Source: Hydrolagus colliei
Taxonomy: Eukaryota
DNA length: 64,000 bases
Direction: 5' to 3'
Assembly (NCBI GenBank): GCA_035084275.1
Contig: CM068757.1
Span: forward strand, 6,262,001-6,326,000
Shown here: positions 1 to 64,000 of the stretch, in pieces
Layout of the letters: every line of letters begins with the position of its first letter
Numbering within the stretch: position 1 is the first letter of the stretch
Program-made: the position numbers and the translations under genes
Notes under the pieces: generated by a model
What the model was told of the DNA's origin: nothing
Seen by the model: only the letters and a program-made list of their open reading frames with translations
The model's database searches: none

Positions 1-360
1 CAGCAGGCAGCGGGGGAGTAGGTGGGCGTTTAACCCACTGGACCGGAAGTGGGCGGTGTGTGAGGGGGAGGGGCTCTGTGTTTACTTCCGGCCCGGGGCT
101 GGAAGTGGCGGCAGCGCTGACAGCGGCGGCGCCGTCGTTGATGTCTGAGTGTCGCTCGCCGGCTGGTGTGCGGGCAGACGGTTAGCCCCGCGCTCCCGTG
201 GCCGCTCCTCTCTCCTCCTCTCCCGCTCAATGTCTGTCTCCCCCGGCTCAGCACCACTCACTCCTCACCGTTGATGGTCCGGTCACCCGCAGGGCGGCTG
301 GGAGCTGACGACCAAGGGCTGGTCGCCCCGCCCGGCGCTTCTTTCACTGGGGCTCAGCGA
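1..360 (+). promoter_or_regulatory. CpG-island promoter and 5' UTR of MOB2 exon 1
   Basis: Very GC/CpG-rich against an AT-rich intron. ETS/GABP motifs ACCGGAAGT (42-50), ACTTCCGG (84-91) and GGAAGT (101-106), GC box GGGCGG (51-56), no TATA box. Leads into an ATG with strong Kozak context at 360. Confidence 0.85.
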
Positions 361-376
361 TGGACTGGCTCATGGG
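360..376 (+). CDS. MOB2: MOB kinase activator 2, first coding exon (MDWLM-G, phase 2)
   Basis: GCG ATG GAC TGG CTC ATG GG|GTGAGT, with Kozak G at -3 and G at +4 and a consensus donor. The peptide matches the recalled vertebrate MOB2 N-terminus MDWLMGKSKAKPNGKK. Only ~6 residues are visible, and exon 2 was not found in the window. Confidence 0.82.
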
Positions 377-13540: not shown

Positions 13541-13631
13541 GCTTTTTATCCAAACTTCCTTGTGACTGTGGTATGTTCCTCGTACAGTGTTCCTCTTGTG
13601 TACAAAGTTGATTGATTTAGAAATCGTATTA

Positions 13632-14197
13632 CCGTATATCTCCGCGTATAAGGCGCACTTTTTTTCAGGTCGGAAGATCTCGAAAGTTGGGGGTGCGCCC
13701 TATACGCAGGTACAAGCAATTTTGAGTCTCGGAGATACAGTAAACAGGAGGGGCGGCCGGCGCGCTGTCAGCCGGGGTTTGGTCAGTGTCCGGCGGGGGT
13801 TGGGAGGAGCGGGTGACGGGGCTTCGGCCTCGGCCGCCCGGGCAGCGGCAGCAGCAGCAGACTCCAGTGCTGTGCTTACCTTCTGCCGAACCCAGTCTGC
13901 CTGCCTCACTCCCTGCCGCTCTCCCTCCCTGTCTGCGTGCCGGCCTGCCTCTCTCCCTCTCTCTCTCCCGGGCTGCCGGCCTGCCTCTCTCCCTCTCTCT
14001 CTCCCTGCCTCCCTCTCTCCCTCCCTGGCTGCCTGGCTTCCTGCCTCTCTCTCTCCCTACCTACCTGTCTCTCCTGTCTCTCCTCCCTTCTGCCGGCAAT
14101 ATCATTGAAAATGCTTGCGTTTTTTTTCACCAAGAAAAGGTCAAAAACGGGGCGCGCGCCTTATACGCGGGCGCGCCTTATACGCGGAGATATACGG
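13632..14197. mobile_element. Non-autonomous Tc1/mariner-superfamily DNA transposon (Tc2/pogo-like MITE), 566 bp
   Basis: Perfect 25-bp TIRs CCGTATATCTCCGCGTATAAGGCGC / GCGCCTTATACGCGGAGATATACGG. TA at both sides (13630-13631, 14198-14199), extra subterminal GCGCC(C/T)TATACGC copies, no transposase. Confidence 0.95.
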
Positions 14198-14214
14198 TAA
14201 GTTAGTGTACCCAC

Positions 14215-49539: not shown

Positions 49540-50443
49540 ATGAGAAGTGGACAGGACAGGAAAGGGGGGTGTGGGAGGAGGGGGGAACTAAAGCAGGGAC
49601 AGTGTGCTTTATGTGTGATTTATGCAAGGCGTTTCTGCCCAGAGAGAGAGAGAGAGGAGAGAATCTACAGCTCAGTGACTGCTTCCCAAACTCTAGTCCA
49701 GCCCATCTGGGTCCGGAATTTGTCTCCCACAAAAAAAATGTTTTTGTAGCTCTGAAGAGAGAGGAAGTTAGAAGCATATCTGTGCATCTTGATACACACA
49801 GTGGAGGAGGTGAGGGTGTGTGTGTGTGTGTGAGGGGGGGGGGATTGCAGTGGAGTGGCCAACCCTACAACAACTGTTAGTTGATGGCAAAGTGAGATCC
49901 AGTTTATTTAGCAGATGAGGAGTTGGGGGTTTATATACACACCCGCCCTCCCATACACACACACACACACACACAGGGAAAGGAATTATCATTGGAGGGG
50001 GATGAACGTGGCAGACAGTGGATGCAGTTAGTCTGCAGCTAGTTGGGAGCAAAGTAGTCAGTGTAGTGTTAGTGCACTCAGTTTCTTCTTCTTATTATTA
50101 TTATTATTATTGGTGTTGGCTGAAACTGAGTCCCTTCACCTCCTGGACACATTTCTCAGGCGGTGGGACCGTTAATTATTCCCGCAGCCTTGCTGCTTAA
50201 TTAAAGGCAGACAGTCAGTCAGCAGAGTAGAGCAGAGCAAGTCTCTCTCTCTCTCTCCTTCCTTCCTTCCTTCCTTCCTGAGGAGTTTGCAGGAGGATTT
50301 CATAGAATAAATAGCCACTCTTGGAAACGGAACATCGTTTCACACACACACACACACACACACGTATAGACACACACACACACACACAGACAGAAAAAAT
50401 ATTATTCAGTCTGGACTTCATCATCAGGCTCCTGTCTACGAGC
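49540..50443 (+). promoter_or_regulatory. Putative internal promoter and 5' UTR of alternative first exon 1b
   Basis: No recognisable transposons; rich in microsatellites ((GA)n, (GT)n, (CA)n, (TAT)n, (CCTT)n). AT-rich TTAATTAAA (~50197) precedes CAGTCAGTC, and there is no ATG between ~50210 and the start at 50444. Confidence 0.5.
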
Positions 50444-50481
50444 ATGAGGCTGAAGAGGAATGGGTCGTACACGTTGCACAG
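50444..50481 (+). CDS. MOB2: Candidate alternative first coding exon of MOB2 (MRLKRNGSYTLH-R, phase 2)
   Basis: AGC ATG AGG CTG AAG AGG AAT GGG TCG TAC ACG TTG CAC AG|GTACAG. A at -3, same phase as exon 1, CpGs retained. Confidence 0.65.
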
Positions 50482-50992: not shown

Positions 50993-51207
50993 ACCGGTGG
51001 GTGTGTGTGCTAAACCTCCGACCACAACAGGCGAGGAGGAGATTAATGCAGACCTTGGGAACAGCAGCAGCAGCATGTGAAGCGCCACCAGAGACAGGGA
51101 GAGGGAGAGAGTGTGGGAGTGGGAGAGGGAGTTGAGTTGAGTGAGTTGAGAGGCAGAAACAACAACAACAACAGCAACCAGCAAAAGCTCACAACCCCAC
51201 GACTCAA

Positions 51208-51245
51208 ATGGACATCCTGTTTTGCCTGGATTGCGTCTTGTTTAG
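51208..51245 (+). CDS. MOB2: Candidate alternative first coding exon of MOB2 (MDILFCLDCVLF-R, phase 2)
   Basis: ATG GAC ATC CTG TTT TGC CTG GAT TGC GTC TTG TTT AG|GTATTG. G at +4, same phase as exon 1, preceded by a purine/(CAA)-rich UTR-like stretch and followed by U/UG-rich intron-like sequence. Confidence 0.5.
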
Positions 51246-52879
51246 GTATTGTATTGTATGTACCCTGGATCAGAATTGTGCTTTGTCATCTTGGCTTCTC
51301 ATCTCATCCATTGCGGGCACAGCTTTTTAACTTTCTGATTTTCTGTTGGGATTATTTGTGTGTGTGTGTGTGTGTGAGTGATTGTATGATAGTGTGTGAT
51401 TGTGTGATTGAGTGTGTGGATGTGTATGTGTGTAGTTTTTCAGTAGTTGCCTTTCACGTACACATGACACAATTCACAAAGCATCGTTAAATCACTAGCC
51501 CTGGGCAGTCCTCGCATAAGGACAGTTCTTGTTTAGGCTTTTGCCTGAGAAGCTACATTGAAACTGATTGTGCTGGAGGGACCAAGTTTGCCATCTGCCC
51601 TGATTTGAGGTGAAGCTAAAACTGTGGGCCAGTGTTGGCTGCTTGGTTTGTTGCCATGTCTTGTGCTGCATTATATCCCAGAGAAATTTAGTGTTTAAGT
51701 TAATTTTGTATGGCACCAACTGACAGTACTGCAGAATGCAGTTCTTATACAATTCCTGGCCGTGCCCGACTAGAACATGGTCCACATAGTGAGTGTTAAT
51801 GCGGATAAACTGTGTGGATTAGATGATTATGCTAAACGAAGATTATTTCATCTTGAATAATTACGGTTGCAAAATGAGTTTATGTTTTATCTGCCTTGTG
51901 CTTGTTACCTGTGAAGAACTGAATTGAACTTTTATCAGTTGGTGTGGGTACAGTTGGATGCACAACCAGTAAATGGATTTCCAGTTAAACCTTTCGAAGA
52001 ACATGCAAGGAGCAGACTAATATAATCTTGTTGCTATGGGAACCTAGATATGATTGACTTAATACAAAGGACCAGTAAATACGTGGAACTTTTATTCTTG
52101 GCTTTTCCCATCCTTTTAGAGAGAGGTGTACAGTGCAAGTCGGTAGAAGTAGATCAAAAGTTCAAGTATTTAAGGAAGTGAATGAATGAGGTGATTAACT
52201 TTCATCTAAGTTAGTGTAAACTTCACGCTCTTTCCACAAACCACACCTTGGTGTCCTTAAAAATATTGCGTGTGTATGTGTTTGCATGTGGAAGGAATAT
52301 GTGACCAATCATTACTGTAAATCAAAAGTTGAAGTGGAGGGCTGGAATACAAATTGCTGCCCATACGCCTGTCTTGTGAATGTTAGACTGTCCTCACCTG
52401 CTTCTCCCCTCGGTACAGAATCCAGGTTGTGTTATCCTGGCATGCTGCAAACAGCAGAAATTTGAGGGCTTAAGCTTATGTAATGTTTCCCTGGAACAAA
52501 CATTGCTGAAAATACATGGGCTGTATCATAAATCTTAAGTAATTAAATCATTTGACTTGTAGCTTGTAAGGACCTTACAGAAGGGGCGAGGAGCATAACT
52601 TAGATTGATTAAAAATCCTGTACTTAGTCATTTCTAATAAAGTAATTGAGCGGAAATTCAAGTCAATTTAAAACAAAATGACAAACCCGTCCTTTGATTT
52701 TTTTTGGCTTCTAACTCTCATCACAGCAAACATACAGGTATTTTAAAAGAACAGTATTACTTGGGCAGAATCCATTTTGGGTATACAACAGCTAACATTG
52801 CTAATAAAACATAAACCTGTTTTTCAACTGCAATTATTCATATACAATAATGGAGTCAACATCTTTATTATTGTAGCAT

Positions 52880-63790: not shown

Positions 63791-64000
63791 CAGTAGAACC
63801 TCAGTTGACGACCACCTCAGTGGCGCGACCATCCCCTCTAGGCAACCAGTCAGAGTTGGTCCCGAATATTTCCTAACTCATTTCCAATTAAATAAACCTC
63901 ACTGACGTGACCACCCCGGTTCCTGGACTGCGGCCACTGATTTGGCGGGTCCCAAACAACATTTTCATGGTCCTAACGCGACCACTCTGGCCAATCAGGG
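63791..64000. mobile_element. Left end of a Tc1/mariner (Tigger/pogo-like) non-autonomous element, cut by the window edge
   Basis: TA|CAGTAGAACCTC terminus with reiterated (C/T)GACCA(C/T) subterminal motifs at about 63809, 63826, 63908 and 63979. Confidence 0.65.

Follow-up and report, generated by a model that had tools for sequence, protein, structure and literature searches.

A conserved alternative first exon of MOB2 in Hydrolagus colliei encodes a two-cysteine N-terminus that may anchor the protein to membranes

The MOB2 gene of Hydrolagus colliei contains an alternative first coding exon, exon 1c, which is almost certainly genuine and which supplies the protein with a short hydrophobic N-terminus carrying two cysteines, Cys6 and Cys9. 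The exon lies within the 64,000-nucleotide stretch of DNA analysed here (the window; contig CM068757.1, G000:C24:6262001-6326000), which contains no MOB core exon; coordinates beyond its end are given in an extended frame made up of the window and the next 40 kb of the same contig. The 38-nt phase-2 mini-CDS with a GTATTG donor that had been proposed about 0.73 kb after exon 1b is present as described: it runs from the ATG at 51208 through twelve codons, MDILFCLDCVLF, and a final AG at 51245, with the ATG 727 nt past the donor of exon 1b (50481). Since in-frame stops lie upstream of 51208, this ATG is the N-terminus of the 1c isoform in this genome. The intron that follows ends at extended coordinate 77458, and exon 2 begins about 26 kb downstream, beyond the window (77459; G000:C24:6339459), with the acceptor CTCAG/G followed by Lys-Ser-Lys codons. 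The phase-2 join between the two exons creates Arg13 and keeps the frame, and GT/AG ends were found at all five coding exons where checked (Table 1). The resulting isoform of 227 amino acids is identical at 223 of 227 positions to Callorhinchus milii XP_042197218.1 (A0A4W3J5U6); the N-terminal 13 residues are identical in the two species (13/13), and the differences are four conservative substitutions, all in the body of the protein. An in-frame product of this kind, annotated as the same isoform in relatives, bears out the original prediction of an alternative N-terminal coding exon of MOB2.

Table 1. Features of MOB2 first exons and of the 1c isoform in Hydrolagus colliei. Positions are those of the window, or of the extended frame where they lie beyond position 64,000.
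Feature	Position	Strand	Basis or remark
Exon 1a, 6 residues including junction Gly	360..376	+	CpG-rich promoter region
Exon 1b, basic, 13 residues including junction Arg	50444..50481	+	class makes up 34/488 retrieved N-termini
5' part of exon 1c, conserved; likely 5' UTR in this genome	51025..51102	+	homologous to basking shark X1 upstream extension
29-codon uORF in the exon 1c frame, closed before 51208	51046..51135	+	putative
MOB2 alternative first exon 1c, coding part (Cys6, Cys9)	51208..51245	+	sequence, homologues, in-frame join
Exon 1c phase-2 splice donor GTATTG	51246..51251	+	use suggested by annotated and assembled isoforms of relatives
Exon 1d, 36 residues	extended 69607-69713 = G000:C24:6331607-6331713		commonest class, 127/488 retrieved N-termini
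Five coding exons of the 1c isoform	51208-51245, 77459-77619, 78274-78367, 86191-86315, from 88677	+	intact frame

Sequence comparison identifies the gene as MOB2, a class II Mob, with MOB2 rather than MOB1/3/4 proteins as its closest relatives. Matches to the Mob1/phocein family (PF03637) are found downstream of the window on the same strand, at C24:6348186 and 6350673, and in the C. milii isoform, which is 98% identical, the Mob domain spans residues 40-205 with a score of 220 bits. Among the best 120 of 240 homologues of exon 2, every one that bears a specific gene name is called MOB kinase activator 2, with identities of 79-98%. The exon 1c tip exchanges only the extreme N-terminus, outside this domain, and is followed directly by a basic patch (residues 13-25, which include six Lys/Arg but lack Asp/Glu) that is common to all isoforms and not specific to 1c. 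In a predicted AlphaFold model of modest quality (mean pLDDT 64, 20 sequences), residues 1-29 have pLDDT values below 50, and a short helix is placed with low confidence at residues 7-11; the low pLDDT predicted for the tip is weak evidence. A vertebrate MOB2 chain was found in none of 19 PDB matches, and residues 1-10 are covered by none of them.

Judged by its sequence alone, exon 1c is not above chance and is indistinguishable from similar pairs. Ahead of exon 2, 77.4 kb of sequence contain 217 ATG-to-phase-2-donor pairs of at least the strength of exon 1c, 19 of them with at least two Cys and no more than 15 codons, and by an approximate donor matrix the exon 1c donor is weak, at -0.34 bits (1.29 for exon 1b and 0.87 for exon 1d). 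The weak donor, the 19 look-alikes and the lack of junction reads from this species would all accord with a chance pairing of an ATG and a donor within an intron. That explanation is nevertheless refuted by conservation, and we give it a negligible probability: the identical peptide is joined to exon 2 in the Callorhinchus RefSeq/UniProt isoform, 12 of the 13 tip residues are identical in sharks and skates, and spliced Logan assemblies are found in relatives. Scored against four bony-fish and lungfish variants only, the exon 1c peptide reaches 37.0, while 92 other 11-12-codon ATG-GT pairs under the same scoring reach a maximum of 9.5 (mean -6.8, sd 7.2). It is therefore conservation, and not the bare pattern, that sets exon 1c apart and establishes it, with near certainty, as a real alternative first coding exon.

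The splice from exon 1c to exon 2 was found in relatives, both in annotated isoforms and in assembled sequences. RefSeq models in many relatives contain the junction; in Logan-derived sequences, a protein of 263 aa (P0229) has a teleost-type tip joined to exon 2 and was assembled from contigs no longer than 1215 nt, and the 227-aa isoform of skate (P0122) is found there in its exact form. Contigs this short that encode the join must, we infer, be spliced transcripts. For this species, 22 runs matched the region, with a share of 0.05-0.07 in 21 of them; the four runs compared gave no junction read, and three of them, of the small-share group (X1, X2 and X9), matched only microsatellites. In run X22 (share 0.66), a contig with no listed difference inside the 38 nt continues unspliced through the exon 1c donor, and is thus attributed to genomic DNA. 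Exon 1c is already contained in automatic annotations (RefSeq/UniProt models), where the tip carries no functional annotation.

The transcribed part of exon 1c is longer than its coding part. The motif begins at residue 36, and not at residue 1, of the basking shark X1 model, and the upstream extension of that model aligns with the conserved 5' segment in this genome with a local alignment score of 58, which was equalled in none of 2000 shuffles, the other two frames being at chance; exon 1c thus reaches well 5' of its ATG. A run of N is present in the region upstream of the exon. An out-of-frame ATG-TGA start-stop was seen at 51075-51080, inside the 29-codon uORF. The observed-to-expected CpG ratio is 0.74 at exon 1a (GC 0.67) against 0.18-0.40 at exons 1b, 1c and 1d, a contrast that would suit a single housekeeping start accompanied by several starts of restricted use.

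How exon 1c comes to be chosen, which the original prediction put down to promoter choice, is a sub-question in its own right, and the exon may lack a promoter of its own, being reached either from the 1b start by skipping of the 1b donor or by way of upstream non-coding exons. A shared 1b/1c unit would suit the short distance of 727 nt between the two exons, and read-through of the 1b donor ends the 1b frame after 15 codons, which would leave only a short uORF; both the shared unit and the non-coding exons are in keeping with the up to three RefSeq transcripts per species that encode one 1c protein. However, the shark transcript model aligns collinearly with this genome over 35 codons or more ahead of the ATG, so that there is no acceptor just before the exon 1c ATG, and a long leader with several upstream ATGs would be poorly translated. 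We regard the absence of a separate promoter as possible but doubtful, for this sub-question alone, and suppose instead that a CpG-poor and probably tissue-restricted transcription start would select exon 1c.

The pattern of change within the tip is informative as to what it may do. The Cys codons, whose conservation had been named as a check on the original prediction, are retained across species: Cys6 is present in 15/15 distinct tip variants and Cys9 in 14/15. Because Cys6 belonged to the selection pattern, the fact that it never varies is to some extent circular; when 50 other N-termini were scored independently of that pattern, none proved to be a look-alike without Cys (best 3.0). In the fish and lungfish variants Cys6 and Cys9 are fixed, and positions 3-5 and 10-12 exchange only within hydrophobic residues. 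Depending on lineage, cysteines occupy positions 6,9; 6,7,9; 6,9,10,11; 6,10,11; or 6,9,12. Mean hydropathy is 2.13 over tip residues 1-12; in sauropsid variants, residue 7 is Ser in all, and mean hydropathy is 0.6-1.0 in most turtles. All three distinct ray-finned variants have gained Gly2 and match an N-myristoylation pattern. Src-family SH4 regions are dually acylated, on Gly2 and a nearby Cys, ahead of a basic patch, and the ray-finned MOB2 tip resembles them in having Gly2, nearby cysteines and a basic patch after these; this species differs in having Asp2 in place of the SH4-type Gly2, so that its own tip cannot be myristoylated. A signal peptide or transmembrane anchor was considered and rejected on inspection, the tip having 12 residues with Asp at positions 2 and 8 and basic residues directly after it.

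The varying number and spacing of the cysteines, the hydrophobic tip, the basic patch and the gain of Gly2 together point to fatty acylation, and a cysteine cluster as variable as this one is easier to reconcile with a membrane anchor carrying acyl groups than with a CxxC site of fixed spacing. Against such an anchor stand the start of the basking shark X1 motif at residue 36, the Ser7 and lower hydropathy of the sauropsid tips, the dispute over the effect of MOB2 on NDR, and the lack of the tip among the mammal, amphibian and squamate entries sampled. Cysteines are often conserved for reasons other than lipidation, and the exon could be real with its cysteines forming a metal-binding CxxC, a redox-sensitive disulfide or an isoform-specific partner-binding motif. 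The Cys6-x-x-Cys9 spacing of 14/15 distinct variants, the acidic residue between the two cysteines in most fish and the low-confidence AlphaFold helix at residues 7-11 could each be read in this way. Yet one bird variant (Acridotheres) has no Cys9 and has Cys10 and Cys11, extra cysteines occur at 7, 10, 11 and 12 according to lineage, and Gly2 and Cys7 were gained together in ray-finned fish; as a metal or redox site, moreover, the CxxC would be without a second ligand pair, in a tip with hydrophobic flanks and then a basic patch. A non-lipid role of the cysteines is, on this evidence, unlikely, although it deserves to be kept in mind.

A further alternative is that exon 1c is mainly a device of expression or stability, in which the start site, the uORFs and the hydrophobic N-terminus set the amount, place or degradation of the protein, and its location is unchanged. 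The 5' region is kept with the shark and holds the 29-codon uORF and the start-stop, and several RefSeq transcripts for one 1c protein (P0129, P0130 and P0132) suggest variety in the UTR. Such a device leaves unexplained, however, why the cysteines should stay fixed amid hydrophobic exchange from chimaera to teleosts and lungfish, and equally the gain of Gly2 and Cys7, and we consider it rather improbable.

Fatty acylation of the tip accordingly remains our preferred reading, and the whole chain, in which the tip would be S-acylated on Cys6 and Cys9, anchor the 1c isoform to membranes and carry NDR1/2 with it, appears to us somewhat better than an even prospect on the sequence data. Once the restricted start had selected exon 1c, a DHHC acyltransferase would acylate Cys6 and Cys9, and MOB2 would be kept at the cytosolic face of the membrane by the acyl chains together with the hydrophobic residues and with the basic patch. 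MOB2 held in this way would recruit NDR1/2 (STK38/STK38L), leading either to local activation or to competition with MOB1. The ray-finned version of the tip may in addition be myristoylated on Gly2.

The distribution of the tip was assessed in a sample of 501 MOB2 proteins, drawn from homologue searches (one of them contributing 120 of 240 matches) and cluster listings (at most 15 members per cluster), for which clades were assigned by hand from source names (476 assigned, 25 left over). An exon 1c-type tip was found in 37 of the 501: in 8/36 cartilaginous fish, 15/77 ray-finned fish, 1/5 lungfish, 10/38 turtle and 2/61 bird entries, and in one Logan protein. It was found in 0/180 mammal, 0/37 amphibian, 0/40 squamate and 0/2 crocodilian entries, these being annotated isoforms in the sample and not genomes. 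Annotated isoforms with the tip include Amblyraja XP_032894807.1, gar XP_015193725.1 and lungfish XP_043915609.1. Shark and ray tips differ from that of this species at 1-3 positions, ray-finned tips have Gly2 and the extra Cys7, and the turtle and bird tip has one residue fewer and has diverged further. Scored against the fish set, six of the seven distinct turtle and bird forms nevertheless reach 17-22 and the seventh 8.3, as compared with at most 3.0 for 50 other N-termini and at most 9.6 for the genomic null; by this sequence measure the turtle and bird tip is likely to be orthologous or homologous to exon 1c. As far as sequence comparison reaches, then, the exon 1c tip is ancient, extending from chimaeras and sharks through bony fish and lungfish, and it seems to be absent from mammals. 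Among the 180 mammal entries, types 1a (58) and 1d (55) are common, whereas no tip of type 1b or 1c could be made out; the two exons may have degenerated as a pair in mammals. A Logan protein (P0086) carries a diverged 1b-like tip. A metagenome scan with exon 1b DNA, which sought its genomic context in other vertebrates, gave no matches.

Exon 1c is one of several first exons. The N-terminal cassette had been described as three-way, but no fewer than four coding first exons are present in this genome (1a, 1b, 1c and 1d, all phase 2), of which 1d is the fourth, and a fifth type occurs in bony fishes and lungfish; the MOB2 first-exon cassette is thus four- to five-way. The fifth type was seen in 12 entries from bichir, sturgeon, gar, bowfin, herrings and lungfish (including P0007, P0011, P0154-P0157, P0161, P0162, P0235 and P0280), and a search of this genome for it returned no match above half the self-score. 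The last 11 residues of exon 1d are predicted to fold into a strongly amphipathic helix (moment 0.76; that of 1c is 0.33), ahead of which lies a Cys that is mostly conserved, and exon 1d is present in human MOB2 isoform 1; exon 1d may be a second membrane-binding tip. A divergent MOB2 paralog on the minus strand (G000:C43:1535915-1553332) has an exon of the 1a type (1553332) and a candidate for one of the 1d type (1542583), and types 1a and 1d would predate the duplication; in 30 kb of this paralog scanned for 1b- and 1c-like exons the best scores were 11 and 9, none of them convincing. Just upstream of the exon 1b ATG, positions 50408-50443 show strong conservation with models from goose and other sauropsids (score 96 of 119 with P0070) and are apparently UTR in this genome. 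The first intron also contains, at 13629-14200, a GC-rich element of 572 nt with perfect 28-nt terminal inverted repeats, which is likely to be a non-autonomous DNA transposon.

The mechanism suggested here can be set against what has been reported for Mob proteins in the literature. The original prediction had spoken of NDR/LATS activation by MOB2; according to a review, however, human MOB2 binds NDR1/2 and not LATS1/2 (PMC6627106), and the results on membrane activation concern engineered MOB1, which when targeted to the membrane recruits and activates NDR1 and activates LATS1 (PMC4880841, PMC7096357). Reviews also describe human MOB2 as partly nuclear, with recorded modifications that are ubiquitin-like only (PMC6627106), and its effect on NDR as disputed, both activation and inhibition having been reported (PMC7096357). 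In the latter, a 2020 review, it is called unclear whether animal Mobs place NDR kinases at specific sites (PMC7096357). The word 'isoform' does not occur in either review (PMC7096357, PMC6627106), and the passages on myristoylation in another article concern its use in engineering MOB1 and MOB3C (PMC10480535). A literature search on MOB2 isoforms and acylation, covering the openings of abstracts, found neither an acylated MOB2 isoform nor an account of what the 1c isoform does.

Two known systems offer partial parallels. In PSD-95 alpha/beta, a scaffold that is otherwise unchanged gains early cysteines from an alternative N-terminal exon encoding 10-20 residues, alongside non-acylated alternatives (PMC6365469). 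PSD-95 is an unrelated protein, with Cys3 and Cys5 where MOB2 1c has Cys6 and Cys9; acylation of the PSD-95 type has been shown biochemically, whereas that of MOB2 1c is proposed from sequence, and its cargo would be an NDR kinase. In engineered MOB1 (Hergovich 2005, 2006; Ho 2010, as related in reviews), an N-terminal lipid tag takes the bound NDR-family kinase to membranes and thereby activates it; there, by contrast, the tag is artificial and the protein is MOB1, while MOB2 binds NDR1/2 only and may inhibit or activate.

Extended to jawed vertebrates as a whole, these observations raise the speculative possibility, which we put forward tentatively, of a natural lipid-anchored MOB2 within an ancient repertoire of four to five first exons by which MOB2-NDR would be sent to different places, with the choice of isoform setting activation or inhibition; ray-finned fish would have upgraded the anchor to myristate and three cysteines, and mammals would have lost it. 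The weight of the finding is limited in that the exon was already automatically annotated, the class of mechanism is familiar and no mammal entry of the sample showed the exon. If true, however, the proposal would provide a natural equivalent, in the living animal, of the MOB constructs engineered for membrane targeting, a simple and testable route for the recruitment of NDR1/2 to membranes, and a reason why results obtained with MOB2 depend on context.
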